DNA of 64,000 nt, taken from Rhynchobatus australiae (taxonomy: Eukaryota). The stretch covers positions 74,045,139 to 74,109,138 of the forward strand of contig JAUZTB010000127.1 in NCBI GenBank assembly GCA_034780895.1, written 5' to 3'. Made by a program: the position numbers and the translations under genes. Shown here one piece after another: positions 5,393 through 55,175 of the stretch; the first letter of the stretch is position 1, and the number at the start of each line of letters is the position of its first letter. The notes under the pieces were generated by a model, which saw only the letters and a list, made by a program, of their open reading frames with translations, did not search any database and was not told the DNA's origin.

Positions 5393-7849
5393 AAGTAGGT
5401 TTTTTAAGATAGAAAAGAGCGAGAAATAAAATAGAGTTAGGAAAATATTTCCCGAGTTAGAGGGGAGAAGTTGAAAGTTATGCTGCTGATAGTGGAGTGT
5501 TCAGTAGACCAAGGTTGAAGAGCTGAGAGTGTAAACTGCAGTAGAGGGCCAAAGAAAGGAAGTGATTTGATGGGTGTCCTTGGGCAAACTATGCTCTTGT
5601 GTCACAATTGGACAAAGCAGCATGAGGCTTGAAAACCTGTTCAACAATGATATCCCATGGCGAAACAGCTAGCCAATGTTGATCCATCCACAGCCAAGAG
5701 GAATGCATCTGTGAGGTACTGGAGAGTTCTGGGTACATTGAGAATGTTCCCCAAAAAGTGTCATGCCCCAAGTACTTACAGTGACAGAAGAACGAGAATA
5801 CTGCACCTTGGAGAATGGCTCCAGATAACAAAAAAACCTCAGACCCTAATGACTTTGATAAACACTTCACCTCCTGCCCTGTGACCTCATCAATGTCACG
5901 TAATCCTGCTTGATAGCAGGCTGTTGATTGTAGGACAGCCCCTTTCCTCAGCTCAGGAGACAGCCAGTACGAATACTACTTTACAGCAGACATTTTGCAA
6001 TGTGTTGAAAAAGTATGAAGTCAGACTTGCCACTNNNNNNNNNNCAGACATTACCTGCAACTATTTTTTTTGGGGTGGGGGGGTGTTGCTGGGAGACCGC
6101 TGTTGGGGAAGGCAACCAATTCAGGCCATTTATTATTTGCTGTCACAACTTGAAACAACCATTTTGAGTTTCCAGTCACATGCAAAAGATTAATACAGCA
6201 TTATCACCTACATAGAGATATGGTAAAACTTTTAGTTGTCAGAGATTCAAAGGTATCAGGACAATGATGTACAAAGCAGGTAACACTGACGGAAGTTATG
6301 TTCTCCACTCCACCCCCCCAAAACACTGCTACTCAGTCCTTTTTCCACAATAGCCTTAGAAAACGATCCCAATGTGTTCTTGTGCAACCTGCAACAGAGG
6401 CTCAGTAGTAGGGGTTAAGTCTGATCACACTGCAGACTTTCTCATTCTGGTGTGCTTGGTGCAAACAGGAACCTGTGAGTGGAGATGGGGAGAGAGGCAG
6501 TAGTAAGCTCACATCTGTACCAAACACCAGCTCATGATTCCAGGTTTTCCACTGAGGAAAAGTTTAAAAAAAAGAACTTCAAACTACACCACCTCTAGGA
6601 GGGAATGATTTTTCCTACAAAAAGGAGCTGCCTTTTCTAACCTATCCATAGTTAAGTAAAAACAATTACTGGGTCTCACACAGCAGTAATTTTGAATTAG
6701 TTATTATGTCACAGGAAAATTTTCTCATTATAATTTTTAACCGAAAGTGTTGGCAAGGAGTAGGTAGGGCCGTTAATGTTACAGAATCCACAGAGCAAAC
6801 ATTACAATCTTTGTTCAATAGAACAAAAACAGACAGCAAATATTTGTCTTGGGTGCAGAGTAGGAAAGAATTCAAAAAGGAACTGACCCTTTCCCTTTCT
6901 ATTACCAACTGACAAATAATAATATTTCAAGCTATCTCAGTGGTAAGATCTGTTACAATGGAGCAGAAGGTATCTCAAAAGCATTGTTTAGTGAACTCAG
7001 GAGGCGGCAAGGATCCAGCAGGTTTCTAAAACCGAATCCATTCATCAGCTTTTCTCCCTTCTGTCCTATTCTGCCAATTCTGAATCTTGTCAGACATTAG
7101 TTCAATCCACCCTTCAGCACCTCACTCAGGGAGCTGAAGTATGCACAACAGACCTCACAGTACTCAACTTTGGATCATCGTGGTCAATTTGCATTTGAAG
7201 CCAGTCCCCATCATGCACAAACACCTCCTGTGCAGGTTAAGGATCAGAAGCAGGAATCAAGGCCGTGTACCCCTGTCGCTGAAGAATGGCAAGAACTACA
7301 GACAGCCCAGACAACTTCAGCTGACTCAAGGAATCAGTTCTGGGACTTTGCTGTCTTCTACCTCTCAGCATCACAATGGGAAAGATCCTCTTCACTTAAA
7401 GGAGTATCCGGAAAGTGTCTCAGAGTAATAATTCAATTTTGGTCCTGCTATCACTCCAGCACATTCCAGAAAATATCTCTGCACCATCTATTGTACAATC
7501 TTTCACCTTAAGGGTGGTTAGAATTAAGAAAGGTTTCATTGAGTGACTTGCAAGTGGCCACAAGATCAACCTCTTAGACATCTGTGATCATAGAACTTAG
7601 TGAGCATGAAACAAAGAAAAAAATGATTAACAATCCTCTCCCATCCAATTATTGATGCAACTTCAGTTCTAAACCATACTCCGTTGTGGGACAGAAAAAA
7701 AAATGCCAGTAAAGTTTGAGATTTCAATCACTTTTGACAGAAATGAAACAAGTTTCAGGAGACGCTGAAATCCTATTAACTCCTTATGCCAAGCAGCAGA
7801 TTAGAAAATTGCTCACAAGAATGGGGTTTTTAAATTTATTCATTTTTCA

Positions 7850-8198
7850 GGATCCGAGTGTCACTGGAAAGGCCAGCATTTTTTACCCATCCCTAAATGC
7901 CCATGAACTGAGTGCCTTGCTATGACTTTTCAGAGGGTGTTTAAACTCAATTACATTAATTGTCTGGAGTTACATATAGCCCATAGATCTCCTCCCCTGA
8001 AGGGCATTAGTGAACTAGATGGATTCTTCCAATGGGTAGTTCTGTGGTAACCAATACAAGGATGGTCATTTTAAAATGTTATTTTATTAACTGAATTTAA
8101 GTTCCACAACAGCCATGGTGGGATTTGAACTCAGACTGAATTGTGAAGTCCAGACTTCTGGATTAATAGTTCAGTAATTTAACTTCTATGCCTCCATC
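7850..8198 (-). mobile_element. tRNA-headed SINE with CR1-group LINE tail
   Basis: Minus-strand B-box-like GAGTTCAAATCCC; body aligns with 28815-29165(-) and 23435-23710(+); tail aligns with the LINE tail at 44360-44435. Confidence 0.75.
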
Positions 8199-8769
8199 AT
8201 ACAGAGGTTGTTCCTTTGTAAAGGACTGCTACAATACCATACACACTAATACATCTTGTTCATTTATTGCAGAGTGTATTGACGCTCCAAGAAAGGAAGT
8301 ACTTCTTTGTATCTAAGCCAAATCATTAACTAAGGAATTTTAAGGAATTTACAGCCATGACTTTAGTCCCACCAACCCTATCTTTTTCAAATAAACCGCA
8401 TTCAGACTAAATTCAAACTCATTTAAATAACTTGGTCATACTCTCCTCTAAATNNNNNNNNNNNNNNNNNNNNNNNNNNNNNNNNNNNNNNNNNNNNNNN
8501 NNNNNNNNNNNNNNNNNNNNNNNNNNNNNNNNNNNNNNNNNNNNNNNNNNNNNCTTGGTCATACTATCCTCTAAATCTACACTTTCCACAATAAATCATT
8601 GGAGAAAAATTGCCTCCAAATTGTTTCTCTTAACTAGGGTCTTTAACTTTAACTGGCAGATTTCCTGCCTACTCCAAATCAAATAAAACCCAGCCAATTT
8701 TAATGATAACCCTTCAACTCCAGCCATCTGCTTCAGGAAGGCAGAAAGTCCACAAGAACCACTGGAAAA

Positions 8770-10447: not shown

Positions 10448-10800
10448 GAGAACACCATCTATAAATTCGCCAACACCATTGTTGTTGACAGAATCTCAGA
10501 CGGCGATGAGGCGGCGTACAGGAGTGAAATAGATCAGCTGGTTGAGTGGTCATGCCCTCTTTATGTTACTACCATCAGGTAGGAGGTACAGAAGCCTGAA
10601 GACCCCCACCCAGCATTTCAGGAATGGCTTCTTCTCCTCCACCATTAGATTACTGAATGGTCCATGAAGTCCTCATTATTCCTCTTTTGCACAATTTATT
10701 TTTGTGACTTATAGTCATTTTTATGTCTTGCGCTGTACTGCTGCCACAAAAGAACAAATTTCACGACATATGTCAGTGATAATAAACCTGATTCTGATTT
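10448..10800 (+). mobile_element. Rex1/Babar-type LINE fragment with internal deletion
   Basis: RT segment NTIYKFA...RISDGDEAAYRSEIDQLVEW fused at ~10550 to C-terminal HALFMLLPSGRRYRSLKT, then 3' UTR ending AATAAACCTGATTCTGATT. Confidence 0.8.
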
Positions 10801-11845: not shown

Positions 11846-12130
11846 AAGATCAAGGAGAGGGAGATGGTAGAGGGCTGTTTTAGTGATTGGGTGCCTATTA
11901 CAAGTGGTGTTCCTCAGGGATTAGGCTGGGACACTTGCTGCTTGATTTGGATGTGGAAGCAAGGAGGTATGATCAGCAAGTTTGCAGATGGCACGAAAAT
12001 TAGCAAAGTCATGATTAATGTGGAGAGTAGTCTTAGGCTACAGAGTGATATTAATGTGTTGGGGAAATGGGCTGATAAATGGCAGATGGAGTTCAATCCT
12101 GATAAGCGCGAAACTATGCATGTTGGATGC
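11846..12130 (+). mobile_element. CR1 LINE ORF2 (RT) fragment, 5'-truncated, left part
   Basis: MVEGCFSDWVPITSGVPQG, MISKFADGTKI and WADKWQMEFNPDK motifs of CR1 reverse transcriptase. Confidence 0.9.
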
Positions 12131-13885
12131 ATGGTCTCCATGATGGAGCTGGCCAAGTCTACAACCCTCTGCAGCCTCTCTCGATCCTGCACATTGGAAC
12201 CTCCACAGCAGGCAACAATGCAACCGGTCAGAATGCTCTCCACTGCACATCTGTAGAAATTTGCAAGAGTCTTTGGTGACATACCAAATCTCCTCAAACT
12301 CCTAATGAAGTGGAACCACTGGCGTGCCTTCTTCGTGATTGCATTAATGTGTTGGGCCCAACATAGATCCTGAGATGTTGACACCCAGAAACTTAAAAGC
12401 TGCTCACCCTTTCCACTGCTGACCCCTCAATGAGGACTGGTGTGCGTTCTCCCCCTTCCCCTTCCTGAAGTCCACAATCAATTCCTTGGTCTTGCTGACG
12501 TTGAGTACAAGGTTGTTGTTGAGACACCACTCAATCAGCCAATCTATCTCACTCCTGTATGCCTCCTCATCGCCATCTGAGATTCTGCCAACAACAGTGG
12601 TGTCGTCAGCAATTTATAGATAACATTTGAGCTGTGTCTAGCTACAGAGTCATGAGTGTAGAGAGAATAAAGCAGTGGGCTAAGCACGCATCCTTGAGGT
12701 ACGCCTGTGTTGGTTGTCAAGGAGGAGGAGACGTTACTACCGATCCACACTGACTGTTTTTTCCTGGTGAGGAAGTAGAGGATCCAGTTGCAAAGGGAGA
12801 TAGAGGCCCAGGTTCAGAAGCTTGTTGATTAGTACTGAGGGGATGATGGTGTTGAAAGCCAAGCTATAATTGATAAACAGCAGCCTGACATGTTTTGCTG
12901 CTGTCTAGGTGCTCCAGAGCCGAGTGGAGAGCCAGTGAGATTGCGTCTGCTGTAGACCTGTTGTGGTGGTAGGCAAATTGCAGCATGTCCAGGTCCTTGC
13001 TCTGACCAACCCCTTAAAGCACTTCACACAGGTGTGTGCGCTACTGGGCAATAGTCATTGCGGCAGCTCACCCTGCTCTTCTTGGGCACCAGCACCCTTT
13101 TAAAGCAGATGGGAATCTCCAACTGCAGCAGTGAGAGGTTGAAGATGTCCTTGAACACTCCAGCCAGTTGGTCGGCACAGATTTTCAGTACCTGCCAGGT
13201 ACACCACTGGGGCCTGATGCCTTGCACGGTTTCACCCACTTGAANNNNNNNNNNNNNNNNNNNNNNNNNNNNNNNNNNNNNNNNNNNNNNNNNNNNNNNN
13301 NNNNNNNNNNNNNNNNNNNNNNNNNNNNNNNNNNNNNNNNNNNNNNNNNNNNNNNNNNNNNNNNNNNNNNNNNNNNNNNNNNNNNNNNNNNNNNNNNNNN
13401 NNNNNNNNNNNNNNNNNNNNNNNNNNNNNNNNNNNNNNNNNNNNNNNNNNNNNNNNNNNNNNNNNNNNNNNNNNNNNNNNNNNNNNNNNNNNNNNNNNNN
13501 NNNNNNNNNNNNNNNNNNNNNNNNNNNNNNNNNNNNNNNNNNNNNNNNNNNNNNNNNNNNNNNNNNNNNNNNNNNNNNNNNNNNNNNNNNNNNNNNNNNN
13601 NNNNNNNNNNNNNNNNNNNNNNNNNNNNNNNNNNNNNNNNNNNNNNNNNNNNNNNNNNNNNNNNNNNNNNNNNNNNNNNNNNNNNNNNNNNNNNNNNNNN
13701 NNNNNNNNNNNNNNNNNNNNNNNNNNNNNNNNNNNNNNNNNNNNNNNNNNNNNNNNNNNNNNNNNNNNNNNNNNNNNNNNNNNNNNNNNNNNNNNNNNNN
13801 NNNNNNNNNNNNNNNNNNAAGGTTTCACCCACTTGAAGGATGTTCTGACGTCGGCCTCCAAGACAGAGATCAAGGGTCATCGCAG
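12131..13885 (-). mobile_element. Rex1/Babar-type LINE RT fragment nested in CR1 (spans an assembly gap)
   Basis: [63 protein letters not shown] (DUF1891-like); frameshifted. Confidence 0.9.
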
Positions 13886-18110: not shown

Positions 18111-19011
18111 CTGACAGTTAGAATGGATAAGAAAGGTATAATGCTCCATGGGCTAAAAGCAAACAACGAATCAGTATCCAATCTTCCCTTGTGCTAGAAA
18201 TACTACCTCTCCTTAATCATGTTGAATGAGAAAGGTTAAATAGTTTTAAAAGCAAATCAATTTGTCCCAGGAAAAGAGAGTGACTGCTGTATATTTTGTG
18301 AAGAAAGTTGATGGTGGAATGTTGTATAAAAGCAAGATAGAGTTATTTGGGTTCCTCCAGTTTCTAATATACTTGTTTCATGATCAAGTGCAAATATCCA
18401 TTTGAGAAGGAGAGACAATGCATGCAGTCTGGAATTCCTCCTGCTTCAGATTATTCCCTTGTAAATAGCAGAGACCTTCATCAATCAAATCTTTGCAGGA
18501 GTGCTAGGAGATTTTGTCATCTGGTCAAACTCTATCAGCACTTTTATTTGTACAACATCTTCATCTGTTCATATGATAGCAATTCAGTTGTGATTGCTAC
18601 CACAGGAACAACACTGGCAAGTGGGCCTGAAGGTTAATGGGTATGTTTTCTTCTTCTTCTTTCTGAATTAGAAAACTGATGCTCCAGAAACTGTTCCACA
18701 GTCTGCAAAGTTCTTATTGATGTTACTCGGGCAGAATCTGAAGCTGTGTGGGACAAGAGTATTTGTCAAAATAGCAGGTTTTTCCATGAACTCAAGTTGA
18801 ATGCAACTTTTCATTGACATATCCTCATCTCCACCTTGTCACTGTTTTTTTTAAGCAATGCTGTAATTTCCCAAGTCTAAAGAGGGAAAAGGACAGATCA
18901 AGGCTGGAGATGGCTGAGCCATGACTCTTTACGGCACTCTCCCTTTCACAAAGTTTTAGTTCCAAATTCCCCAGTGCAACATCTTAAAAAAAAAACTTAG
19001 TTTATGCTCCA

Positions 19012-21101: not shown

Positions 21102-23434
21102 NNNNNNNNNNNNNNNNNNNNNNNNNNNNNNNNNNNNNNNNNNNNNNNNNNNNNNNNNNNNNNNNNNNNNNNNNNNNNNNNNNNNNNNNNNNNNNNNNNN
21201 NCCACAATTTTCTACTTACTCAGTCTACAACAGAAAAGACTTCAAGACTTCAGGTCCTGTACAGCCAGAATAACTGATGGGGAGCATTCACCTGGAAACA
21301 GGATTACACTGTGCAGCTAAAGATCTACTTAATGGCTGCCCATCATGGATCAGAGTTTCCTGGACTTTTTTGGCTTCTGTAACAGAAGAGTTCTCATTTT
21401 CTGAAATACAGTGGGAGTAGTGAGTTTGAGGAGTTGGTAGGGAGAAAAGAAAGTCACTCACAGGAAAACTTAAAGCCCGTCAGGTACACTATGTTTGAAT
21501 AAATCTGAATCATCTTAATGAAGTTCAATAACTTAAATTAAATAAAGAGGAATCTTGAATCCAGTAACAAAAATCAATTGTTATTTTTGTTTAAGTTCCC
21601 TCTTTTGAAGATGGCTACAAAAGCTGCCTTGGAATCAATCTGTTCAATTGTACAGAGGCAGAACCGACACGAATGGTGATCATCCAAGCTCTTTCAGATT
21701 GTGAAATCACTGAGGTACACTGTCGATCATCAGCATAATCGATTAGAATCAGTCCAAGAGTTTTACCGAGAGGCACTCTTGGTAGCATAGCAACATGCAG
21801 TTAGAGCAGCAGGAATGGGAGGCAGAGACAGAGCAATGGTGGTTATTTCAGAAGCACACCCGAGAGTGGGAGACCAAGTGTTCAAAACCTCTGGTTCAGA
21901 ATCCTGGACTGGATTTCAGACAGACTTGAAACAGCAAAACCAGAGTTCTGTTGCATCAAAAAGCACCATCATGGCATTCTAACTTGGCCACATCAGCAAA
22001 AGTGGTGAAATCCTCAACTTTCCATTCCATCCACAACTAAACAGCCAATTTTTGAAACATTAATATTTTAAAATTATAATGAGATGTTAGTCCAGCAGCC
22101 TTTGGACTTTCACCTGGAAGTTTTATTAAAACAAGGCAAGACACAGCAGTTAAACATTTTAATCGGCACTGGTTAGCCACTGACCTCTAATTAGGGCCAA
22201 GCAGAAAAATACGAAGAACTACATTTTGACAGTGCATAGGCAGACTGCAGTTGGCTCAGTGGGGTGGGACAGAAGGTCAACAGATTTTTGTCTATTATCA
22301 AGATTTTGCACATTTTCAGATTTATTAGTGTAAATAATGATTTCTACAATGACNNNNNNNNNNNNNNNNNNNNNNNNNNNNNNNNNNNNNNNNNNNNNNN
22401 NNNNNNNNNNNNNNNNNNNCGTGGGCCAATATTTACAGAGAACCCCTCGCATTCAAAAGTTTGTACAATATTCACTTAACCGAACAGCTTAAGGAGCGGA
22501 TTTCACCATTCCAGCCAGCAAAATGCTGCTCCTTTCTTCCCTCTCTCTAACAAGTGTATTATTTGTGTGTATAAGCAGCAACAAGGCTCCTTGGACACTT
22601 CAGCTTCCACCAGTTCCACTTCATCCCTTCTTTCTTTCCTCACTGCAAGAATTCCCGGTCAGATGCAAAATGGCAAACATTATAACGGGCTTTAGAAATG
22701 TACTGGTGGGGATCCAGGATTAATGCACAGTAAATATTCTTTTTCCCTTTGCCACTGAAAGACGAAGCATGGCACACAAGAGCTGATATCAAAAGGCAAA
22801 TAAAATCTGTAGTAATATTTTTAACATGCAAACCACAGCTAAAAAATCTTGTCAGTTACCCACTGAAGTTGACCTGAACATGAAGCCTCTTTCACAGGCA
22901 CTTGGTAGTTAAATCATTTTTATTTTTAAATTCAGACTAAAAAGATAACTTTCTTGCCAAGTATTACGAGAGCAGAACTGCACATCCAAACACACCCACG
23001 CTTCTTCCATCTACTCCTTTCTCTGCTGAAGTTGACTTCCAACAGGGAGCCATTCCACAGGGGCTAGCATCTCTCCAGAACTTACCCAAATGCCCAAACC
23101 TAGGCAAATAGGAAGTGCCTGCAGTGCAGTGCTGCATTCATACATGGCTCACAATCTTTGCAACACAAGTGAATGAAAGTGTCCCCCAGAACAGTTGGTC
23201 AGAAGAGGAACAAACTGGAGGGCAATGAATATATTCCAGGAAGTAATGAACTCAGAAATAGCACTCAACACAATACAACGTCTCACGGCAACGTCACCTT
23301 GAACTTTTATATCACAAGTCACCATGGCAATGCATTCTGGAGCAAAATGATATTTTTTTAATTTTGCCACACTACCTGCAGTTTTTTTTTTAAACCGAGT
23401 TCATCCAACAGTGGACTTGCCTGTGACACCTGGA

Positions 23435-24359
23435 ATGGTAGCGCAGAGATTACGTAACTGGATTAGTAACCCAGAGGCATGGATTAATCTCAAATCACAC
23501 AACAGCTGGAGAATTTCAAATCAATTAATTAAATTTGGAATAAAATGCTAATACCAGTTATGGCAGCCTTGACACTACCACATCATTGTGAAATCCCATG
23601 TAATTCACAAATATCCTCTGGGAAAGTAAACACGCCATCTGCATCTGGTCTGCGCCAATATTCAGCCTCAAGTTGACTTTTACCTACACTCCAAAATGGC
23701 CTAGCAAGTTATATGAAGCTATTACGAACAAAAATGCAATAATAAAGAATAAAATTTGTCACATAACCTGGCATTGACCCATGCCGCAAAAGCTCAAGTA
23801 AGCCAGGTGATCCTGAAGTCTTCCTTAATAATACAAGTGCATTTGTACAAAATAGGGGTGGTTCACTACAGACAGGCAAGATGATAAGCTTGATACAGAC
23901 AGACTCAAACATCCCATACAATCTCAGAATGCCCTCTATCCCAATAGGATAGACCCTGTAGAGGTGGTGGCACTGTGGAAACAGGCAGGAAGGAGTCTTC
24001 AACATCAACTCAGGATCTCCCAAAGTCTCATTATATCACATCAGATAAAGGCACAGAATTCACCTGCTGAGTCTCATCTACTGCCCTTCTTCAGTTGATG
24101 AATTTGTACTTCTCCATGTGGAGTATCATTTGGAAGAAGGTAGGTAGAAAGAACACAATCTATTCTGGAAGGAGAACTCACCAGGAGTGGCTCGGTACCA
24201 TTACTTCTGGCCAAAGCTTGAAAGTGACAGCTACTGGATTCAGCCAACAACAGATTATGAGAGAATCAAATGGGAAATGAAAAACTTACCTGAACTCTCT
24301 TCTCACCAACCAATTACAGGCACACCAGTCCATAGCAGTGTTAATAAGATTACTCAGTA
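23435..24359 (+). mobile_element. Old CR1-group LINE, 5' part: tRNA/SINE-like head followed by APE endonuclease remnants
   Basis: Head aligns to the SINEs at 7850-8198 and 28815-29165; downstream DRPCRGGGTV, IYCPSSVDEFVLLHVEYHLEEG, HQEWLGT..., ..LTN motifs of the APE domain. Confidence 0.7.
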
Positions 24360-24950
24360 TTGGTATTGGTTATTATTGTCACTTGTACCGAGGTACAGTG
24401 AAAAGCTTGTCTTACAAATCAGTACAGGTCAATTCATTACACAGTTCAGTTACATTGAGTTAATACAGAGTGCATTGATGCAGTGCAGGTAAAAACAATA
24501 ACAGTACAGAGTAAAGTGCAGTGCAATAAGATGCAAGGTCACAACAAGGTAGATCGTGAGGTCATAGTCCAGCTCATTGTATAAGGGAACCGTTCAATAG
24601 CCTCATCACAGTGGAGTAGAAGCTGTCCTTAAGTCTGGTGGTATGTGCCCTCAGGCTCCTGTATCTTCTATCTGATAGAAGAGGAGAGGAAGAGAGAATG
24701 TCCCAGGTGGATGGGGTCTTTGATTATGCTGGCTGCTTCACCAAGACAGCGAGAGGTAAAGACAAAGTCCAAAGAGGGGAGGTTGGTGTTTGTAATGCAC
24801 TGGGCTGTGTCCACAACTCTTTGCAGTTTCTTGTGGTCCTGGGCAGAGCAGTTGCCATACCAAGCCCTGATACATCCACATAGGATGCTTTCTATGGTGC
24901 ATCTGTAAAATTTAGTGACAGTGAAAGGGGACAAACTAAATTTCTTTAGT
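24360..24950 (-). mobile_element. Rex1/Babar-type LINE 3' fragment with 6-bp TSD (TCAGTA)
   Basis: FYRCTIESILCGCIRAWYGNCSAQDHKKLQRVV; (CCAATA)n tail; TCAGTA at 24354-24359 and 24951-24956. Confidence 0.9.
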
Positions 24951-25560
24951 TCAGTACAGTTTCCATGAAGATAAAATCACTACGAGAATTTGGCTGCCTT
25001 CATGCTGTGGGCATCTGCCATCACATTGTGTAGCACTACTATTTTGCCAAATGGGATAGATTCAAAACAGATTTAGCAGCTCAAAAGAATCACCTCTGGG
25101 GACACCATGGGCCATTAACAGAGGTAGACATTTATTCCAACCTCAATATGTAATCTCTGAGCCGAATAAATTCCTCACTATACAATTACCATCAAGGCAG
25201 GTTACCAAACCTGCTTTAATGAAGTGTCTAGAAGACCATGCCAGCAGCAGCATCAGGCAGACCTAAAGAAGGTGCCAACCTCAAAGCTGAATCAAGGTAC
25301 GAACCTACAAAAGGATGGAAGCAATACTGGTAAGTGACATTTATTCACCAAATGGGACCAGCACTGTTCCCACAAGACCAAGCTGATGCAATACTTAACC
25401 CACTGCAAGAGCTGTTAAATCTTAAAACACACCACCATTTACACCTCAAGAGTACCTGCAATTATCCAACATTCCACATCAAACCTGAACACCATCAAAT
25501 AATCTGACTGGTGAAGAGAAGGACATAAATTTAACGATGCCTCAGCACTTTTGCCAGAAA
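24951..25560 (+). mobile_element. Continuation of the old CR1-group LINE
   Basis: HYYFAKWDRFKTDLAAQ and IPHYTITIKAGYQTCFNEVSRRPCQQQHQADLK, then scattered RT-region remnants. Confidence 0.7.
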
Positions 25561-26604: not shown

Positions 26605-26770
26605 AAATTGTCAATGGTACTGAGGTACAGTGAAAAGCTTGTTTTGCATACTGTTCATAGATCAATTTATTACACAGTGCATTGAGGTAGCACAAGGTAA
26701 AACAATACAGAATGCAGAGTAAATTATCACAGCTACAGAGAAAGTGCAGTGCAGGTAGACAAGATGGTAA
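26605..26770 (-). mobile_element. Rex1/Babar 3' UTR fragment
   Basis: Aligns with 24375-24540 (GAGGTACAGTGAAAAGCTTG). Confidence 0.8.
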
Positions 26771-28030: not shown

Positions 28031-28814
28031 CTCACAAAACCTCTAAACAACATGGAGCAAACTGAAATATAAAATGATTTGAATATCGAATGTTTTGAAA
28101 GGATGTGTGTTTCATACTGTAAAACTCAACCAACCACTTATCAAGCTGAAATCCAATCTGTTAATGCAACAATGATTAGCGTGTGTTACATACACTTATC
28201 CGTGCAGGAGTGCAGCAGAGCAGCAGCTTCTCCAATTGATAAAAGGTTTTTGAGAGCCAGACAATTGAATAACTGTCAACCCCTTCATACCAACGGTGGT
28301 TGAGAAGTCACAGACAGGAAAACATTTATTCCTTCTCCATCTCTTCAGGGGAAACAGAAATATGCAGGGGGAAATCAGTCCTTTAGAAAACTGCCACTTG
28401 CTTGTTCCTGATACAGCAATGGGCTCTCTTTATATCCCAGTTCTCCCTTTTCCCAAGAAATTAATTAGGCTTTAGTTTCTCAGGTGACTAACAGTCCCAA
28501 GTGCCTCACAAGTGTGCCAACTATTTGGGGATTGACAAGTGTTCCAGAAAATAAATGAGTGAGCAGAGTTTTAGATAGAAGAGACTATTCACGACATAAA
28601 AGAAAGTCAACTCTGGATGAAGGAAGGTTTTCCTTCAATTTCTTTTGCCATCAATTATTTTCCCTTTTCAATGGTGTGCAGTCACAACTCTGAAAAGGTC
28701 CACTTTACCAGCGATGCTAGCACATTGCTCTAGGAAGGAGGGCATAATTGGAAACAATGTGTTCTCTTATCTCTAGACATTTTGGTTTAAATGTTTACTA
28801 ATACAAGGAAAGAT

Positions 28815-29165
28815 TGTTCGTTTATTACTTCATGGGGTATAGGTTTCACTGTCAAGGACAGCTTTTATTGTGCATCCTTACCCTTAAATTGAGTGAATTG
28901 CTGGGCCTTTTCAGAGGGAAGTTAAGAATCAACCACATTCCTGTGGCTCTGAAGTGATATTAAGGCCAGACTGCCAAAAGATGGCTGTTTTAGTTAAAAG
29001 ATATTAGCAAACTAGAATGGGTTTTTACAATGATCTAACTGCATTCATGGTCTCTATTACTGATTATCTATTAACAATTTAAATTCCCTTGAGGCATTGG
29101 TGGAATGTGAACTCATAACTCTGGACTACTAAATGAGATTGTATTACTAGGCTAGCAATTATATT
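28815..29165 (-). mobile_element. tRNA-headed SINE, same family as 7850-8198
   Basis: Colinear similarity (TTTTCAGAGGG..GTTAAGAATCAACCACATT; GGTGGAATGTGAACTCA). Confidence 0.75.
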
Positions 29166-32100
29166 TATGTAGACTACAAGGTACTGAACTTTAATGACTA
29201 AGATCTTGTGCAAGTTTATGATCTGTAAATCTTTGCTAAAAGCACATGGTATTTGTACAAAAGAAATGGGTGAAAATACGATCAGCAAAATGCCAGTCTC
29301 AATCACGGAACATTAGCCATCTAGCCCATGTCTGTATATGGTGCCTTTGGGTGAGCTATCAAGCCAACAAGTACTTCACCACCAAAAAGGGGTTTCAAGA
29401 GTAGAGCAGAGAAACTTATAAGAATGAGGAAGTCAAACAAAATTAAATCAGCCTGGTATTTATCAGCAATATAGCACAACACCCTCCAGCTCATTAATTG
29501 ATGCATTTTTAAAACATTAAAAAAAAGTTTGTTCCCATCACACATTACTGGAATCTAAANNNNNNNNNNNNNNNNNNNNNNNNNNNNNNNNNNNNNNNNN
29601 NNNNNNNNNNNNNNNCCAGTGATTGTCACAATCTCAACTAAAATATTGGGATGAAATTATTTTTAAAAATAGAGGGTCATGGTGAACCGCTGGTATTATG
29701 TGGTGCTTTAAGGAGCACAAGGAAGCTAGATAATTCAGAGTCCAAGAGACTGATAAATCACAAAACACATGGCCAAGAAGCAACTCTCATTGCAATTCTC
29801 CACGCCTTTCTTTCATTCCAATATTAACTTCTGTTGAATTGCAGTTTCACAAGCCCCAGATTTCATACACCAATAGATCACCCAGTGCCCAAATCTACCA
29901 AGAGCATCAACAGATTATCTGATCACATAATTACAGCAACTGAGTCCTATCTTATCCCATTTATGGATGTCGATGAAGACATTTCACAACCAGGGTGAAT
30001 AGATACTAACTGGATTTAGGAACCCTCATGATTTTTAATCTTCCTTTACCAAGACCAAGCATGTGAAATGCATCAACTAACAGACTGTACTCATTTTACA
30101 TGACTTACAGCTTCCTGTATGATACACATTGGTAGACTGCCTTCTCACAGGGGTCTCATTTTGTTTTTTTTTAAACTTCAAACTATTATCATACTTTTGC
30201 TGTCTTTCATTCTCTAAAAATATATCTCCTCATCCTCCTTGTATTTTTTTTGTGCAAAACACCAGACCAAATCAGACAATTTTATTATCACAGTAGAGCC
30301 ACCTTAAACACTACTTCCCAAGATACCCTGGNNNNNNNCCCCCCCCCCCCCCCCCCCCGGAAACAATCAGCTTCCCAATGAAAAATGAAAGTCCCACTGC
30401 AGAAACTGCACAGAGTCCATTGGATGCCTTTGGAAACATGGCTGATTAAAGTTTCCTTGAATTTTTCCCCTCACCTCATAAATTCTGTGATAATTAATTG
30501 ATTCAGATCTTCTCCAATTCACTTTGCCCATACATAGAGGATAGCCATATGGTAGAGATACATCAGTCATGGATAATTGAAGTCACAGTATGCAACAGTG
30601 GTTAGGTCAAAAAATAGTTTGGATCATGATAGGAACATGTCATAATAGACTGGCTTTGAAGACACTTGACATTTATTGGTGATTCAGTAGTAATGCCCCT
30701 GTATTGATAACTCCTTCAAAAGTGTGAGAGACTTATGAATGTATCCCTGCAGGCACAATAAGCAAAGAGCTACAACCTATTCTGAACTCTCAAGAACTTC
30801 AACCTGATCACTATATACACCCTGCCTAATGGCTGCAGGAAATCAAACCAGCTTCAAACTACAAAAATAAAACAATATCATTTAGATTGTGGGAAACTGT
30901 GACAAAGACAGCAAGCAACAAAGCAGGGATTCAGAGCTGAAACCAGAGCCATTACGCCCTATAGCACAATCTCTCAAATATCTTTCGTGCCTTTTTTGAA
31001 AGGAAGAACAAAGAATTGGCAGCTTTCTTCATCCCATGTTTTAATACTTTTTCTTAAACGGCAATTATTTCCTTCAAGACAACACATGTGCTTTCTCCAA
31101 TTGCTGTTTCTGTTCCTTTCAATAGCTCCAAATGGTCTGAACCTTTAACAAAAATACAGCTCACGAGTCAATCACCTGTCAAGGTTGTAAAAGGTAGATC
31201 CTGGGTAATGGCAAGAAATACATCAACGTCCAATGGCACCAGTGAACTCTCTCAGCTCAGGTTTCATGCTGGGATAGAAATGCGTCAGGTGAAATCCCCA
31301 ATTTTCTATATCTGCCTTAGCAATATTTTGCATACACAGATGAGAGTCAGTTAGGAAGTTAGGAAAAGACTTTATGATAATGCCCCATAGTGTTGAATGA
31401 ATGCTCTACTTGAAGTTACTATCTGGATTCACACATTCAGAATGGCCACTTGGGTGAGGTGGTAGGAGCTGGTACCTGCAGAAGGACTGCCACTTCCAGG
31501 TAAAGCAAAGACTAGATGGAAGCTGTGTAATATGTGTGCATGTGGCCGAGAGGAAAGTTTATGTCAGAGTGAGGCCTCTGTGGAATTAAATTACCAAACG
31601 ATGAAAGATGCTACATTTTCGATAATTTTCCAAAGTGCACAGCCAACAAAATTGTCGGGCAAAGAGTAAGAACATTTGAAACAGGGTTCAACTCACCAAC
31701 TCTGCCTTTTGAGTTGTGCACTGTTACCTCCAATATATCCCCTTTCCTCACCATTTGACTGCTTAACATGGCAGTGACATCGATATTCTCAACACCTTCA
31801 AACTGGTCTCACTGCAGCTCCCAGCCATAACTCCTACCCAATGCCAGGCTGAGAACAGGAATTTCTGATTTACCAGACATCCAAAGCACATTCCTGCCGT
31901 GTGAACCACACCAATTTACAGCCAGGACTGAACAAAGTGGCAATGATTTACTGGGCAGATCTGCTGATGCAAAGCAGCTGGTGGATCACTTATTCCTGTG
32001 AGAGCAATAAAAGGCCTACAGATTCTTGGCCTGTCTATGCCAGTGTTGCACATTTGCGCTAGCCAAGGAATGGAAGATGGGATGGAAAATAGTTTCCAAC

Positions 32101-32955
32101 TCCAGACTTGTGAATTTTTCTCGAATACACAAGTCATATTGCTGCTGCCAGTCCTAAGAAACACAGAAGTGTCAAAAGGCACTTCAACATAAATGACTGT
32201 TACTGATATCAGACAGTAGGAGAACTACAATATCAGCTGCTCTTCTAATTGCAAGAGCCCAGCCTACTGAAACCTGACATCACCATATGTCCATTAATGC
32301 GTGGCTCTATAAATCATTGTAGGATTAAGACAAGTCAAAAAAAAAATCAAGCCAGTCAAGTGTGCCTGCGCTTATAGGGCAATTGGTTCCAACAATATTC
32401 ATTCCCTGGGCCTCTGGAATCTGTCCAAGTGACATTATAAAGTAAATGGAAGATCAGGACATTTGAATTCATAGGGCTCTGAAGTTTCTCTCTCTAGTAT
32501 TTCCCATTTCTTTCTTAGATGCGTCCTGACCAAGGGAGCATTTGTTTCCTGTTCTTATTTCCAGAATCCACAGCATTCTACTTTTGTGTTACAAGATTCA
32601 CTCTCCTGGTACAAAAATGAGGAAGGTAAACAAAAAGTCAGTGTCTTAAGGGCACAATCCCTGAAAGCTCAGGTGGCAATTATCTCCAGGGATTGGAGTA
32701 GAGAACTGAGATCACTCCAAACAGCAGGTGCACTTACGTTTTGGTTCAACAAGAAAATCTACNNNNNNNNNNNNNNNNNNNNNNNNNNNNNNNNNNNNNN
32801 NNNNNNNNNNNNNNNNNNNNNNNNNNNNNNNNNNNNNNNNNNNNNNNNNNNNNNNNNNNNNNNNNNNNNNNNNNNNNNNNNNNNNNNNNNNNNNNNNNNN
32901 NNNNNNNNNNNNNNNNNNNNNNNNNNNNNNNNNNNNNNNNNNNNNNNNNNNNNNT

Positions 32956-33365: not shown

Positions 33366-33674
33366 AGGTTTTTAAAGCAGTGATTATGACTCTGTGCACC
33401 TTTAAGAACTCATTTATACCTCCTGTATCGATGTACAATACCTTCTTGACAGTGGGAGATGCAGCGGCAGCACAAATGTACACCACCATAATCTGTAATC
33501 TCACTGTCCAACACATTTTCATTCTGTTATTAAAATCAAGACAGATTAACCCTGATTCAATGAGTGTATGAAAAGTAGTGGGGAATTAAACACCTAACAG
33601 AAGGAGAGGCCTTTAGTCAGACCACACTGCTTCCATTTGTTTACAACACTGGCATCTACCTCATAATGAGGAAT

Positions 33675-34450
33675 ATTGTCCAGGTTTGTCTAATTCTCAA
33701 AAGGCAGGCCAAATCCAATCTGTCTAATTACTGCCCAGTCAGTATACTCTCAATCATCAGTGAAGTGAGGAAAGGTGTCATTGACAGTGCTCTCAAGCTG
33801 TACTTGCCAATAACTTCATCACAATGAAAATCTTAAAATAAATGCTGGAATGTGTAAAAAAAATGCTACAAACACTCAACATGTCAGGCAGCATCTGTGG
33901 AGAGAGAAATAGAATTAACATGCATTCTGTGGCGAGTGCTCAACCCTTTTCTCCCTGAAGTCTTCCCATGGTCCACAAGTAACAAGTCAGGTCTGTGAAT
34001 TAATAATCTCTGCTTGCCTGGATGAGCACAGCTCCAACACTCCAACAACACCAAAGGAGCTCAATACCATCCAGGACAAAGCAGCCTGCTTGATTAGCAC
34101 TTCACACACTACAAATTCATTCTCTCCACCACCAGTGCATCTTGGCTGCAGGGTGTACCATCTACCAAATGTACTTAAGCAACTCAGCAAGGCTTCTCTG
34201 GGAGCATTTCCCAAACTCACAATGTCAACCACCAAGGAAAAGGGCTTCAGGAACACGACTGCCTGCAAGTTCTCTTCCAGGTCGAAAACATCCCGACTTG
34301 GAAATACATTTTCATTTTTTCATCACTGCTGGGTCTAAATCCTAGAACTTTCCAATCAAAAGAATGTGGGAGCACTTTCATCAAAAGTACTGCAGTGATT
34401 AAAGGTGGTGGCCAAAAATGCTGAAGAGTCCAGGATGGGGTCAATAAATC
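33675..34450 (+). mobile_element. CR1-group LINE RT and 3' fragments interrupted by a Penelope end (33840-33925, minus)
   Basis: KRQAKSNLSNYCPVSILSIISEV (NYRPISL motif); SACLDE..PKELNTIQDKAACLI; 3' UTR. Confidence 0.75.
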
Positions 34451-40039: not shown

Positions 40040-41092
40040 AGGCACATCTTCCTCTCGCCCCCCTCTCTCTGCCTTCTGCAGGGACTGCTCTCTCCGCGAC
40101 TCCCTTGTCCATTCATAATCCTGCTGGCAATTATGCCTGCNNNNNNNNNNNNNNNNNNNNNNNNNNNNNNNNNNNNNNNNNNNNNNNNNNNNNNNNNNNN
40201 NNNNNNNNNNNNNNNNNNNNNNNNNNNNNNNNNNNNNNNNCGCGACTCCCTTGTCCATTCATAATCCTGCTGGCAATTATGCCTGCAACCGCACCAAGTG
40301 CTACACCTGTCCCTACACCTTCTCCCTCACCACATTCTGGGTCCCAGACAATCCTTCCAGGTGAGGGAGTGCTTCAGCTGCGAGTCAGAGGGTGTCATTT
40401 ATTGCATCCAGTGTGGCCTCCTGTACATTGGTCAGACCCGACGCAGATTGGACAACCGCTTCGTCAAGCACCTTCACTCCATCTGTCGCAACAGCCAGTG
40501 GCCACCCACTTCACCTCCACATCCCATTCCCATACTGACCTGTCTATCCATGGCCTTCTCTACTGCCACATTGAGAAGCAGGTTGGAGGAAGAACACCTC
40601 ATTTCTGCCTTGGGAGTCTCCAACCTGATGGCCTCAATATCGATTTCTCTAACCTGGTAACCCCACCCCTTTTTTTTCTTCCCCACCCGACTCCTTTGGC
40701 TTCCCTTCTTCCTGTGGCTCCCTTTCCCCTCCTTGATGACCTGCCCATCTCCCCTCCTCCATTCTTTATGCCATGGTCCACTGCCCTCTCTTACCGACTC
40801 CTTCTTCAGCCCTTTGCCTCTTCTACCTCTCACCTTATTACATCTTCCCCCCCCCTCCACTTACCTTACCCCTCACCTGGACTCACCTATCACCTGAACT
40901 AACCCATCTGGGTGTGCTCCTCCCCCTCCCTCTTATTCTGGCTTCTGCCCTCTTCCTTTCCAGTCCAGATGAAGGGTCTCAATCCAAAATGTTGACTGTT
41001 TATTTCCCTCCATAGATGCTGCCTGACCTACTGAGTTGCTCCAGTACTTTTTGTGTATTGCTCCAGATTCCAGCATCCGCAGAATTTCTTGT
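40040..41092 (+). mobile_element. Penelope-like element: GIY-YIG endonuclease remnant plus terminal repeat region
   Basis: GPRQSFQVRECFSCESEGVIYCIQCGLLYIGQTRRRLDNRFVKHLHSI; RLEEEHLI..LGSLQPDGLNIDFSN; decayed hammerhead motif at 40961-40998. Confidence 0.9.
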
Positions 41093-42190: not shown

Positions 42191-44319
42191 GGAGAATTCC
42201 CTCCTTGAAGGCACTGATATGTCCTGAGGGACAGTTTTGCAGAAACTGGCCATGTTCAGATTTCTCACCCATGTTCTTTCTTCATTTGCTAGACAGGGAG
42301 CACATTGAGGGGGGTTGGAAAATTTGCTGGAAATAATTCAATTCTTGAGCCAATTATTCTCCCCGACCTCTCATTTCAAACATACACCTGAAAAACAGCT
42401 GGTTTTAGGTGATACCATCAGCACTAAGAATCAACATCCAGCAAGAGTTAGCACCACTACGGGAAAACAAAATCAAGGAGGAAATTTGGGGTTTAGAGGG
42501 AGTTGAAGAGGATGGAAGTATGAAGGAGGGAGAAAAATGGAGATGATGCTTTCCTACTTCAGTCAAAGTCAAAGCAAACACTCGCAACTATTTGTTCCTC
42601 ACTGGGTACAATATTCAAAAGCAAATGTTGTCAGAAGAAATAATGCAATGATTGTTCTATCTGCGTGCAATCCTCCTTCAAAACAAAACACAATGAACAG
42701 AGCCTCTAATAAAGGATTTGGCTAAAATATTTAGCAGATCAAAGACAGACAAGCAATGCATTTGCCAACCGCATCTCAACTCATTGAGTCATACTTAAGA
42801 TTTCTTTTTAAGTTTTCCCGACAAGACGAATTATAACAGCGCCAACTGCTGTGGTAGTCAAAATTAGTGAACAGTGCTAACCTGAGATAATGCCTTCAGC
42901 GAGATAAAAACCATCAGTGGCTCCCTTGACCCCTCCCCCACCAATTCCCCCACTTCCCCACAGTTTTATAGACAAAATGAATTATTTCAGTGTAGACAAC
43001 ATGATTCATGCCAGATATTAAAAACCAAGATCAAAGCCATATCCCATTGCTCTATGCTACAATAATAACAACAAATACCTTCATATTAAGATACTTTAGG
43101 GCCTTGGGTCACACCTCCACAAATCTATCTTATTCCCTGGATTTATGGGGTATTTTGACAGAACATACTGCTAAGCATAGTTCACATAATAACCACATAG
43201 TAGGCCAGAAGACATCAAAGTGGTGATGCCAGACTCTATCAAAAACTGACTCATCCCTTTAAGAAACTTAAAAGCTGGATTTTATCTCTAACGTAGGCGT
43301 TTGAGAAATTGTGGAAGCAGGCAGCACTGAAGGAAGAGTAGCTATTCCTGCATTGCTCACACCAGCACAGGAGAAAAACGATCCAATGTTTATGACTACA
43401 CTCAACATCAGTGTCTGATCTTTTGCTGAGTGATCACAATCTTTTCACCAACAGCAGTCAACTTCTGATAAGAGCTTTTGTTGATGAAAAGGTGCTCTGG
43501 GGACTCGATAATGAACAACATTCCCACCTTTTCACCGATAGACCATCTCTATAATGCTACAGCTTGCAGTAATCACAATCAAAACATTTTGCACATCAGT
43601 TGATATCTCTGCAGTTTTCTTTCTACTTGCAGAATTAGTCACTAACCCACTGCAGCTCCAAAAGCTTTTTCTCTTTTTAAAAAAAAGCATAAATCCATTT
43701 GCTTTCCAAACCTTGTGTTTAAGGGCTTGGCCAACTCTCAACCTACATTGTTGGATTGCGAGACTTATATTCCATTAGTAAAGGAGGAATTTAGATAGTG
43801 CTCCAAAGGGGAGTGCTCAAAACAGATTACTGGGGATACTATTATTCAGCACAGCTCATCAGAAAGGACACATCTCATCCAGATGTTTAGCAGAAAGCCC
43901 AACCTCTCATATACTTTAGTGAAGTAATCTATAATGGTTTATTCAGCCTCTAAGCGTGCACATTTGCATGTGTCTTCTGCACTCTGTAGTGGATGACTGA
44001 AGTTGATGTGATATTGATTTTGGAGTGAAGATAATGAAATCTCAAGTTTCCAGGTCATCCTGTATTAACTCCACTCTCGCATACTATGGTCACTAACTTG
44101 TTGCTGGTTCTCCCACATTCTTTCCACCCACCACCTGTTCTTTAAGTCACAAGTTTAAGAATGGTCTTCAGATGACTATAGATCTCTCCCCACTCCCCTT
44201 TGGGGACTTGATGCATTTCTAGTCCAAGAAAATCTTGTGTTTATGATTAATCAGCTGCTATTTCTCCCAGTTATTCCCACGAACCAAACTTGGCTTTTTC
44301 CTGAGGTAATTAGCTTGTT

Positions 44320-44435
44320 CATCATCACTGGGTCTAAATCCTGGAACTCATTACTGACCAGCACCTTCTCAAGGACAATTAGGAACAGGCAGTAAATGCC
44401 AGCCTTGCCAGAGATCCCCATATCCCATAAATAGT
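44320..44435 (+). mobile_element. 3' tail of the CR1-group LINE
   Basis: CATCACTGGGTCTAAATCCTGGAACT matches 34321-34350; CACCTTCTCAAGGACAATTAGG..TAAATGCCAGCCTTGCCAG. Confidence 0.7.
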
Positions 44436-44634
44436 AAGTACAATGTTCTAGTGTATGCAGATTCTGAATGAAAAATAGTGCTTAGCAGAGAATTGTGTAC
44501 TCACTGAAATAAGAGCATGAAGGTAACATGAACATTCAAATTTAATGCAACCAGAATACCCACCCATTAACTTAGATTCAGACTTTTCCCGCAACGATAT
44601 GCATTGAGGTGTTACAGAAATAATATTAACAACA

Positions 44635-44884
44635 GGGCGGCACGGTAGCGTAGCGGTTAGCGCAACGCTATTACAGCGCCAGCGATCGGGGTTCGATTCC
44701 CGTCACCGTCTGTAAGGAGTTTGTACATTCGCCTATGCCTGCGTGGGTTTCCTCCAGGTGCTCTGGTTTCCCCCCACATTCTAAAGACGTACAGGTAGGT
44801 TAATTTAGAGTTTAAAATGGGCAGCGTGGACTCGTTGGCCTGGAAGGGCCTGTTCCCACACTGTAAATAAAAATTTAAATTTAA
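44635..44884 (+). mobile_element. Young tRNA-derived V-SINE-type element with CR1-type tail
   Basis: A box TAGCGTAGCGG (44646-44656), B box GGTTCGATTCC (44690-44700), V-domain GCGTGGGTTTCCTCCAGGTGCTCTGGTTTCC, tail GGAAGGGCCTGTT and (AAATTT)n. Confidence 0.92.
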
Positions 44885-45389
44885 CAAAAAAACATCCCAA
44901 TTGCAAGCTGATAGGATCAGGTCAATTTTACAACAGCCCAACTTTAGTTTCACTCACTTCAATGGAGGGTGAAATTAGCTGGATGTAAAACAGAAGGCTG
45001 ACCCAATCATAAGAGTTCTCCACAGGTTGGCTTAGGTCTAAATCACCCCATATACCTCCCTGTTCCTTGATGAACCTGGAATATATACAATTATTCATTG
45101 TTCAGCTGATGAGGTAATTTATACTAAGTCTCCAGGCTAAGTACTTGGGGCTTTGTGAAGCAGCGAGGAACCAATGGAACATGAAAAGTCAAAAGATTGT
45201 AGAGTTTTGCATCAGTGGGAGTTCAGTTAATCTGCAATTATATTTAAGAACTTAAACCATAATACTGTTGTGTTTGATTTTATTGAACCAGTGGGGAAAA
45301 AAGTCTGTGAATTGTAACATATGATGTAAATGCTCTTGGATACTCACCACACCTGGTAAGTGGGTCAACTTTTTTTTCTGGTGATGCAT

Positions 45390-45590: not shown

Positions 45591-46084
45591 AAAAAATGGA
45601 TTTCCAAGCACTGCAAAGAAGTACAGTATTTATTTAACTGCCCTCAAGAAGGTGGTAGTGAACAACCTGTTTGAACAGCTACAGTCTAAGTGGTGAAGGT
45701 ACTCCCACAATGCTGTCCTGTGGGGTGTTCCAGAATTTGCATTTGGTGGAGAATCTGATGGTGTTACCATGCACCTGCTGTCCTTGTCATTCTTCATGGC
45801 AGAGGTTGCAGATTTAGGAGGTGCTATTGGAGAAGCCTCAGTGAGTAAATGCATGCATTTGGTAGTGGGGATACACTGCAGCCACACTTCACCAGAGGAA
45901 AGGAAACTGAATGCTTAGGATAGCAGATGGGGTGCAATTAAATAGGCTACTTCATTCTGAATGGTGCCAACATCCTTGAGCTGTACTCTCACAAGCAAGT
46001 GGAGAGTACTGCATCACACTCCTGACTTGTGATTTGTAGACGTTGGAATAGCTTGATGAGTCACCCCTACAGGATATCCAGACT

Positions 46085-46370
46085 CGGAAATAAAAAGATA
46101 CTGTAGAAAATACTCAGCAGATCAGGTAGCATTCCAAAGACAGTTAAATGTTTCAGGTCAAGGACACCTGATCGGAACTCGAGAAGTGAAAAAAAAACAA
46201 TAATTTAAGATGCAAAGCTGGAGAGAAGCAAGAGAATGTCTGTGATACAGTGGAGAGCAAGGTTGTAAACATAGCACTTTTCAAACATCTAGTTAACAGA
46301 AGAATATGAGCAATTAGAGAGAATAAGAGTTAAAAGGACTTGCTAGAACTATGAGAGAGAGGACAATGAA
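46085..46370 (-). mobile_element. Penelope-like end fragment
   Basis: AAAATACTCAGCAGATCAGGTAGCAT..CAGTTAAATGTTTCAGGTC. Confidence 0.6.
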
Positions 46371-46836
46371 GCTGCACATACCCTCTGGCCTGTTTCTGTG
46401 GTCAGTTATTATGTGGCTTGTCCAGTTGAGTTTATAGTCAAAATTGATCCTCAAGATGTCAATGGTGAGAAACATGAATGATAATGCAAGTGGATGTCAA
46501 GGATAGATTACTCTCTCTCGTTGGACATATTATTCACTACTTCTCTGTCCAAGCCTACATGTTGTCTTGGGTTTGATGCACAACAGGGATGAATTGCTTT
46601 ATTGCTGAGGCATTGGTAATGAAATTGAATATTGTGCAACCATCTCCACTTCAGATCTTATGAAAGAAAATGGTTGGACCTGGGACATTGCCCTAAGGAA
46701 TTCTGCTGTGATGTCCTGGGCCTGGAACGATTCGTTAATGACTTTCTAAGTGCGAGGTATAACTCAAGCCAATGAATTGTTTTGCCCATAATGCCCATTG
46801 ACTTCAGTTTGACCAGGGCTCCTCAATGCCACATTC

Positions 46837-47087
46837 GGGCAGCACGGTAGTGTAGTGGTTAGCACGAAGCTATTACAGTGCCAGTGACCCAGGTTCAATT
46901 CCCGCTGCTGCCTGTAAGGAGTTTGTACATTCTCCCGTGTCTGCGTGGGTTTCTTCCAGGTGCTCCGGTTTCCTTTCGCATTTCAAAGATGTACGGGTAG
47001 GTTAACTTGGGTTTAAAAAAATGGGCGGCGTGGACTCGTTGGGCCAGAATGGCCTGTTACCACGCTGTAAATAAAATTTGAAAAAAA
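46837..47087 (+). mobile_element. Young V-SINE copy, same subfamily as 44635
   Basis: Full-length colinear similarity with 44635-44884. Confidence 0.92.
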
Positions 47088-54464: not shown

Positions 54465-55175
54465 TAATCCTTACCCTGCTGAATAAACAGCAACTCCATC
54501 CAGTTAAATGGCGAGTAACCCACTTGCTGAATAAACATGTACAACTGGAATGAGTAACCCTTATCCTGCTGATCCACTTCATCCAGTTACAGTGAATAAT
54601 CCTTACCATGTCGAATAAATGCCAACTCTGTTTGGGTTCTCAGCGAGCAATTGCATCCCTGCTGAAGCAGCAATTCTAAACAGTTTGTGAGTTATCACGT
54701 TCCTATTGAAAAATTCCATTTCACTATATACCAAAAATCCTAACAACAACTCTGTTCAGTTATGCAGAGAATACACTTTTCCAGTTGATACATCAGCGTG
54801 GCAGGCATGGTAGTGTAGTGGTTAGCATAACGTTATTACAGCGCCAGCGACCCGGGTTCAATTCCAGCCGCCGTCTGTAAGGAGTTTGTACGTTCTTCCC
54901 CGTGTCTGCGTGTTTCCTCCGGGTGCTCCTGTTTCCTCGCACATTCCAAAGATATACGGGTTAGGAAGTTGTGGGCATGCTACGTTGGCGGGAACGTGGC
55001 GACACTTGCGGGCTGCTCCCACAACACTCCGCGCAAAAGATGTATTTCACTGTGTTTCGATGTACATGTGACTATAAAGATATCTTATCTCAAAGCAAAT
55101 AACCCCTTCTGTGTTGGTCAGTTCTGTTTAGTTATATCAGTAACTCTTACTGTTGAATTAACAGAAATTCCTTAC
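54465..55175. repeat. Degenerate ~45-50-bp tandem array split by a SINE
   Basis: Recurring AGTAACCCTTACCCTGCTGAATAAACAGCAACTCCATCCAGTTA-like units at 54469, 54515, 54552, 54595, 54645 and after the SINE at ~55138. Confidence 0.7.
54800..55090 (+). mobile_element. Young V-SINE with Rex1/Babar-type tail
   Basis: 5' ~160 bp match 44635/46837; 3' part differs and ends TATTTCACTGTGTTTCGATGTACATGTGACTATAAAGATATCTTATCT. Confidence 0.88.

Follow-up and report, generated by a model that had tools for sequence, protein, structure and literature searches.

Retrotransposons are usually split into LINEs, which are Pol II messages, and SINEs, which are Pol III non-coding RNAs that borrow only a tail. Among the described systems, the closest to the locus studied here is the elasmobranch CR1-Zenon LINE family, which is itself already catalogued (PMC13343379, 2026), the absence of ORF1 and the existence of Zenon deletion derivatives having been published as well. 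According to the sections of PMC13343379 considered here, Zenon elements are without ORF1 and have a poly-A tail, and those of elasmobranchs group with crustacean elements; the endonuclease coverage is 92-99% in three elasmobranch Zenon rows and an intact ORF is listed for 3 of 612 stingray Zenon copies. Sections of PMC6740152 describe Zenon LINEs as repeatedly giving deletion derivatives, which we count in favour of a deletion origin below. Persaeus originated on at least four occasions in Lepidoptera and, in those sections, has neither homology to tRNA nor a Pol III promoter. Other shark SINEs, bivalve SINEs with Zenon tails, and ZenoSINEs, the origin of whose heads is unknown, are treated in parts of PMC5499810, PMC7245038, PMC4824008, PMC3747384, PMC10886601, PMC2746220, PMC6685494, PMC11481361, PMC10468316 and a whale-shark preprint.

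The window, i.e. the whole 64-kb stretch of DNA that was analysed, contains at 23432-25560 (+) a LINE which is, judged from its sequence, an old decayed elasmobranch CR1-Zenon copy, 5'-complete, 3'-truncated, without the RT half, interrupted by another LINE and ~ 25-30% diverged from the consensus. Its tRNA-like head spans 23432-23510, and the ungapped match of 23432-23488 to nt 2-58 of SquAca_Zenon-1 (45 of 57 positions, by eye) indicates a 5'-complete copy. A previous reading of this DNA from the sequence only had the element start at 23435; the colinearity it described holds but the exact start does not, the true one being 23432. A box scan finds an A-box remnant at 23439-23449, and the B box is broken by a ~ 16-nt deletion immediately 5' of 23489. 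The head is followed by the remaining 5' UTR, a body common to LINE and SINE (23511-23709, from alignment, profile and consensus block), and a LINE-only linker then leads from this shared block to the endonuclease (23710-23814). Within the linker, 23738-23779 equals HypSab_Zenon-1 at 30 of 42 positions (by eye), and a 14-nt consensus-linker motif has a single match in the 64-kb window, at 23766-23779 with 2 mismatches (0.03 expected; 3 of 100 shuffles). Since 106 nt separate the end of the shared block (23709) from the start of the endonuclease (23815), the linker is too short and leaves no room for an ORF1.

The first part of a decayed APE endonuclease region, with stops and frameshifts, extends over 23815-24359. 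Its start was placed by eye, 23815-23833 agreeing at 15 of 19 positions with the endonuclease start of HypSab_Zenon-1 at the end of the first 400 nt of that consensus, while the remainder is presumably endonuclease on account of the APE motifs in its translations. With single decayed frames as queries, no endonuclease was found in the window LINE by Pfam (9 frames), PDB or homologue search. Hence, the earlier claim that the element runs within ~ 100 bp into endonuclease remnants without an ORF1 is borne out as to spacing; the remnant itself has by-eye colinearity and one motif test behind it, the tool searches being negative. The ORF is split by a later insertion of ~ 590 nt, the 3' end of a LINE from another family (24360-24956, (-)), with a 6-bp TSD at 24354 and 24951; relatives of the inserted piece (24360-24950) are found at 26609-26759, 12124-12294 and 10548-10663. 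Past the insertion, the LINE ORF resumes at 24957-25560 with the endonuclease end and a linker and stops before the RT, the 3' limit being approximate; besides what the TSD implies, a resemblance in its translation leads us to take this stretch as the probable continuation of the ORF. The whole of 23860-25560 would be continued Zenon ORF, the consensus comparison covering the first 400 nt only. No convincing TSD was found that would pair 23432 with either 25560 or the 3' fragment at 34450. In all, 3' ends of this other LINE family lie at 24360-24950 (-), 11914-12426 (-), 26609-26759 (-) and 10548-10663 (+), the 11.9-kb piece being a match to Pfam ALKBH8_N (E = 2e-8).

The colinearity of 23435-23710 with two SINE-like elements of the window, as first read from the letters, was confirmed by alignment and by profile. 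With 23350-23900 as query, 23435-23708 aligns locally to 8197-7916 (-) over 175 of 300 columns with a score of 84 against a shuffled best of 42 (n = 100), and the same query scores 103 against 28700-29300 (-), where the shuffled best is 45. Furthermore, when only the two SINEs go into a profile (394 positions), its positions 5-307 find 23436-23710 (E = 1.6e-13) and its positions 314-378 the LINE tail at 44368-44432 (E = 1.5e-5). The two short elements, defined by alignment and profile as head, body and LINE tail, lie at 7840-8199 (-) and 28813-29170 (-) and have the same breakpoint. Their tails align to 44300-44450 at 48 of 71 and 43 of 61 positions, with 0 of 500 shuffles reaching the scores. 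With the sequence following the head in the window LINE no alignment is obtained, the score being attained by 104 and 23 of 500 shuffles, and the match of a SINE tail falls short of significance for the fragments at 34.3-34.5 kb (65 of 500 shuffles) and 45.6 kb (29 of 500). The proposed identity of SINE tails and LINE tail is thus retained for 44300-44450 and lacks significance for the piece at 45628, which matches the ORF end.

Both copies exit the LINE 5' sequence at one point and enter the last ORF codons and the tail with nothing between. This switch had been placed at ..GCAAG; it is indeed the same in both copies but really lies ~ 10 bases further (by eye), the SINEs and the LINE consensus agreeing ~ 10 bases beyond ..GCAAG, of which the window copy lost ~ 8 (by eye). 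The short element, ~ 360 nt in total, is made of the LINE's first ~ 320 nt flush-joined to ~ 75 nt of the LINE 3' end, and the LINE 5' region contains no tail sequence. One flush switch point in both SINE copies matches the outcome of an internal deletion, and the short element is best read as an internal-deletion derivative of the LINE. Regarding its class, it has a 3' tail in common with a LINE, as a SINE2 does, and the 5' and 3' ends of its partner LINE, as a SIDE does; a SIDE, however, has by definition neither a small-RNA head nor a Pol III promoter, and A and B boxes are present here. Weak matches at 57049-57107 (+) to the tail (E = 0.045) and at 18389-18450 (+) to the body (E = 0.016) are possible further pieces of the short element.

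Among known SINE modules, an identity with SacSINE1/Deu was rejected, the head being unlike SacSINE1 nt 2-78 and the body unlike the partial Deu sequences in print (both by eye), and so was the UCON3 body, unlike by eye against three printed rows. The V body was discarded as well, a profile of the window's V-SINE-like copies missing all three loci at E <= 1. The comparison of the CORE domain with the shared body consisted of one printed example only.

The family of the LINE was examined with the consensus rows in the supplement of PMC13343379, of which the first 400 nt each were compared and 10 sequence rows stand among the matches listed. In this part of the supplement there are at least seven elasmobranch CR1-Zenon consensuses, from five species and of 2.9-3.3 kb, and among the matches listed 7/7 have this head, body and linker at their start. 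The shared body block is likewise seen in all seven listed, one of which (the seventh) carries small deletions in the head, body and linker region, while the three hagfish and coelacanth Zenon consensuses among the matches listed all begin differently in the part covered. An 11-nt motif of the window junction is present in 6 rows of that part, all of them elasmobranch Zenon consensuses; five motifs from downstream window sequence gave 0 matches in the supplement, where the first 400 nt per consensus were searched. The head-to-ORF junction, as these sequences have it, is a family trait, in consensuses and genomic DNA alike: its presence in the real DNA of the window means that it is not an artefact of consensus extension. 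Hence, the junction is not unique to the locus but recurs in 7/7 consensuses from five species among the matches listed, and none of these seven is a full-length LINE with another 5' UTR and an ORF1, Zenon elements lacking the latter. This supports the first of the two readings proposed from the sequence alone, a CR1-group LINE of one ORF that has a tRNA-like 5' end, with the SINE as its deletion derivative.

At the other end, the tails at 7840, 28813 and 44435 finish in short A-rich stretches and the window LINE copy itself is without a 3' end; the window's LINE tail would be that of the headed Zenon family, the consensus 3' ends lying outside the compared sequence. In HypSab-1, the one consensus whose compared part reaches the endonuclease, the frame is open for 41 codons upstream of it, Arg-rich and without ATG (by eye; one consensus). 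An ORF start at an ATG within the shared body was rejected on two grounds, both by eye: the spacing from body to linker falls in different frames across the first consensuses of five species, and a stop in the endonuclease frame lies inside the shared block. Protein searches for junction-spanning ORFs returned 0 of 100 candidates (poor frame), 4 of 293, none with endonuclease, and 0 of 6, and scans of GTDB for contaminant copies returned 0 loci.

A tRNA-derived A/B-box module very probably opens the ~ 330-nt 5' region of this one-ORF (endonuclease and RT) LINE throughout the family. By eye, and among the matches listed, the A box is canonical in all seven elasmobranch consensuses and the B box in six of them, and the A box is 6-11 nt from the consensus 5' end, as in tRNA genes (by eye). 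Between the two boxes is a hairpin resembling an anticodon arm, with AGT at the anticodon position (by eye), and the putative assignment of the head to tRNA-Thr comes from that position only. A second copy of the arm, of ~ 21 nt, follows in tandem in most consensuses and lengthens the A-to-B spacing, the HypSab-1 form being shorter (by eye); in the window head the duplication (23455-23495) appears as a best self-match at 21 nt (10/20). Tools found no tRNA in the three window heads, which are decayed copies (ARAGORN 0, Rfam none), a V-SINE head taken as Rfam control reaching only E = 1.3. These heads fold no better than shuffles (z of 1.16, 0.04 and 0.16), and an exact B box is found in one of the three, at 8130. 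As no tool detects a tRNA in the window heads, the tRNA origin rests on the consensus motifs. The earlier term "tRNA-like" is therefore kept for the A and B boxes seen by eye in the consensuses and finds no echo from Rfam or ARAGORN in the window. RNase P-type processing of the head is disfavoured, an acceptor stem being not evident in two consensuses (by eye).

Further LINE fragments are scattered over the window. The 3' fragment at 44250-44435 (+) goes from the ORF end into the tail used by the SINEs (tblastn with P0002, E = 0.006 at 44249-44362; tail alignments). The one at 33660-34450 (+) contains the RT start (33660-33830, by eye) and the C-terminal part (33947-34450; phmmer and tblastn), and 33962-34435 gives 9 protein matches to the RT C-terminus at E <= 0.001, the best at 6e-15. 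A search with one of these RT proteins brought up three horn-shark proteins with LINE pieces and, at 32% identity, one protein with an RT; in the Atlas, the clusters closest to the query contain an RT and are arthropod, in line with the grouping of elasmobranch and crustacean Zenon elements. Judged from these matches, the host is most probably a shark or ray. The three horn-shark proteins, P0005, P0010 and P0011, are isoforms (JMJD8, prostacyclin receptor and cationic amino acid transporter 4) containing translated pieces of the LINE ORF end, for which exonisation is predicted. An interrupted stretch of RT and ORF end is located at 45637-46830 (-) (nhmmer to the 33956 fragment, E = 2.7e-22; tblastn for 46054-45637; by eye above 46250). 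The RT start and 3' end at 33660-34450 (+) are on the same strand as the truncated copy and 8 kb downstream of it, with assembly gaps between, and may represent the 3' half that this copy lost, broken up by insertions; no TSD was found. A younger tRNA-headed SINE family, 81-87% alike, is present at 44635-44886 (+), 46837-47083 (+), 54804-55041 (+), 60463-60724 (-) and 56392-56566 (+), and we take it to resemble HE1-type V-SINEs. The translation of 40265-40660 (+) presumably resembles a Penelope-type GIY-YIG endonuclease, for which Pfam gave no match, and ~ 32500-32700 (-) seems to us to resemble a dynamin PH-domain exon, which would set the repeats in a long intron.

Taken as a whole, the explanation that we find fairly probable is that of a headed one-ORF Zenon LINE, the head being its putative internal promoter, with the SINE derived from it by internal deletion. 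An ancestral elasmobranch Zenon would have swapped its 5' end for a tRNA-derived module, and this module would be an internal promoter whose boxes are bound by TFIIIC, with a Pol III start at the element's first base, so that the promoter would travel with each new insertion. An internal deletion during or after reverse transcription would then join the first ~ 320 nt and the last ~ 75 nt, and the resulting ~ 360-nt element, in possession of both promoter and RT-recognition tail, could spread as a SINE. That the LINE came first and the SINE arose by deletion is on balance likely. To transmit its promoter, a non-LTR element must have an RNA that begins with the element's very first base; a type-2 promoter at that base meets this need, and for this reason Pol III is put first. 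However, Pol III stops at T runs and its RNA is uncapped, and a 3.3-kb message is thus hard to reconcile with this polymerase. We accordingly place transcription of the whole LINE by Pol III from the head a shade below an even chance, while the complete scenario, in which a Pol III-made 3.3-kb coding RNA is translated uncapped from a non-AUG start across sharks and rays and yields SINEs in one step by internal deletion, is doubtful.

Pol II is a close rival for the LINE RNA and quite possible, if short of probable. Under the same architecture, the LINE RNA would come from a Pol II promoter in the body or from host read-through, with the boxes active only in the short element or as a TFIIIC-bound helper. 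PMC5786205 and parts of PMC10886601 present LINEs as transcription units of Pol II, and capping would settle translation. As to T runs, a T4 run occurs within the first 400 nt in 0/7 elasmobranch versus 3/3 non-elasmobranch consensuses (by eye), most of this stretch being shared with the SINE. The depletion expected under Pol III is not seen in seven LINE fragments of the window, which have 9 T4+ runs where 10.7 are expected (170 of 500 shuffles as low), but two SINE controls are equally undepleted (3 against 3.4 expected), hence the test is without power. Against Pol II, the consensus 5' ends coincide with the position of a tRNA gene's first base (by eye), and the boxes are retained in five shark and ray species (by eye).

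The order of events could also be reversed, which is unlikely: a headless Zenon would first give a deletion derivative, this would gain a tRNA head by the Bov-tA route, and the LINE would take the head over from it through recombination within the body that both contain. For every step there is a precedent, in parts of PMC6740152 for Persaeus and in PMC5786205 for the addition of heads to bipartite LINEs, and the flush junction is predicted too, but one extra event is required and neither a headless LINE nor a headless short element with the body is found in the window or among the 7 consensuses listed as matches. Capture of an unrelated pre-existing SINE (head, body and Zenon tail) as a new 5' UTR via template switching is more improbable still. 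SINEs often switch templates and exchange modules according to parts of PMC5499810, and Zenon tails are, in the sources considered, used by bivalve SINEs of several superfamilies; the switch, however, would need to hit the body/tail border exactly, and the body is unlike Deu, V and UCON3 (from partial sequences and by eye for Deu and UCON3). Finally, it is scarcely credible that the junction is a chance adjacency or, as in the second of the earlier readings, a SINE-LINE chimera formed once at this locus, since the window does have a single such junction in a copy ~ 25-30% diverged from the consensus but the identical junction in 7/7 consensuses of five species (among the matches listed) rules out the one-off, and the 14-nt linker motif (0.03 expected) also speaks against it.

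If the headed LINE with its deletion-derived SINE is accepted, a LINE family of high copy number that itself carries a tRNA promoter on its 5' end would blur the LINE/SINE split. It would offer a one-step route to a new SINE, reveal where a SINE body came from, and suggests that the polymerase that makes tRNA may start a protein-coding retrotransposon. Repeat annotation is affected as well, as the 5' ends of such LINEs will be masked as SINEs. The proposal is directly testable, given that the full consensuses are deposited and intact-ORF stingray copies are listed in the sections of PMC13343379 considered.

In the literature search, the titles and abstract starts contained no tRNA-headed CR1-group LINE and not this SINE; the short element may nonetheless have an entry under a different name in Repbase, Dfam or SINEBase. 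The main text of PMC13343379 has 0 occurrences of tRNA, promoter and polymerase and one of SINE (a reference), and the short derivative is not described there; the main text of its preprint has 0 of tRNA and promoter. The window junction motif gave 0 hits in paper full texts and none in the supplements of PMC5804259, PMC5786205, PMC7245038 and PMC4824008 (the last in part).

Compared with known systems, SacSINE1 (a Deu-SINE) and the HE1-type V-SINE are tRNA-derived and live in the same hosts, but head, body and partner (L2-2_CM and HER1, respectively) differ. Bov-tA, CoeSINE4 and SINE2_Gav also combine a tRNA head with LINE 5' and LINE 3' parts (PMC5786205); in these, whose partners belong to RTE or Vingi, only the SINE is headed, whereas here a CR1-group autonomous LINE is headed too. 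RTE-1_DAn and relatives are, in one sentence of PMC5786205, autonomous LINEs said to contain tRNA-like sequence, as here, but they belong to the RTE clade and not to the CR1 group, and are likened by that description only. The Persaeus SIDE and lepidopteran Zenon, in the sections of PMC6740152 considered, likewise pair Zenon 5' and 3' ends with a single-ORF partner; A and B boxes are found here on both LINE and short element, whereas Persaeus, in those sections, is devoid of a Pol III promoter. Closest of all, the elasmobranch CR1-Zenon consensuses (CarCar, HypSab, RhiTyp, ScyCan and SquAca), in the part of PMC13343379 covered, share with the window copy the 5' end, body, linker, endonuclease start and absence of ORF1, the window copy differing in being decayed, 3'-truncated and interrupted. 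What is seen here is thus a tRNA-promoter-like 5' end, apparently unremarked, and a SINE-like deletion derivative of a known LINE family.
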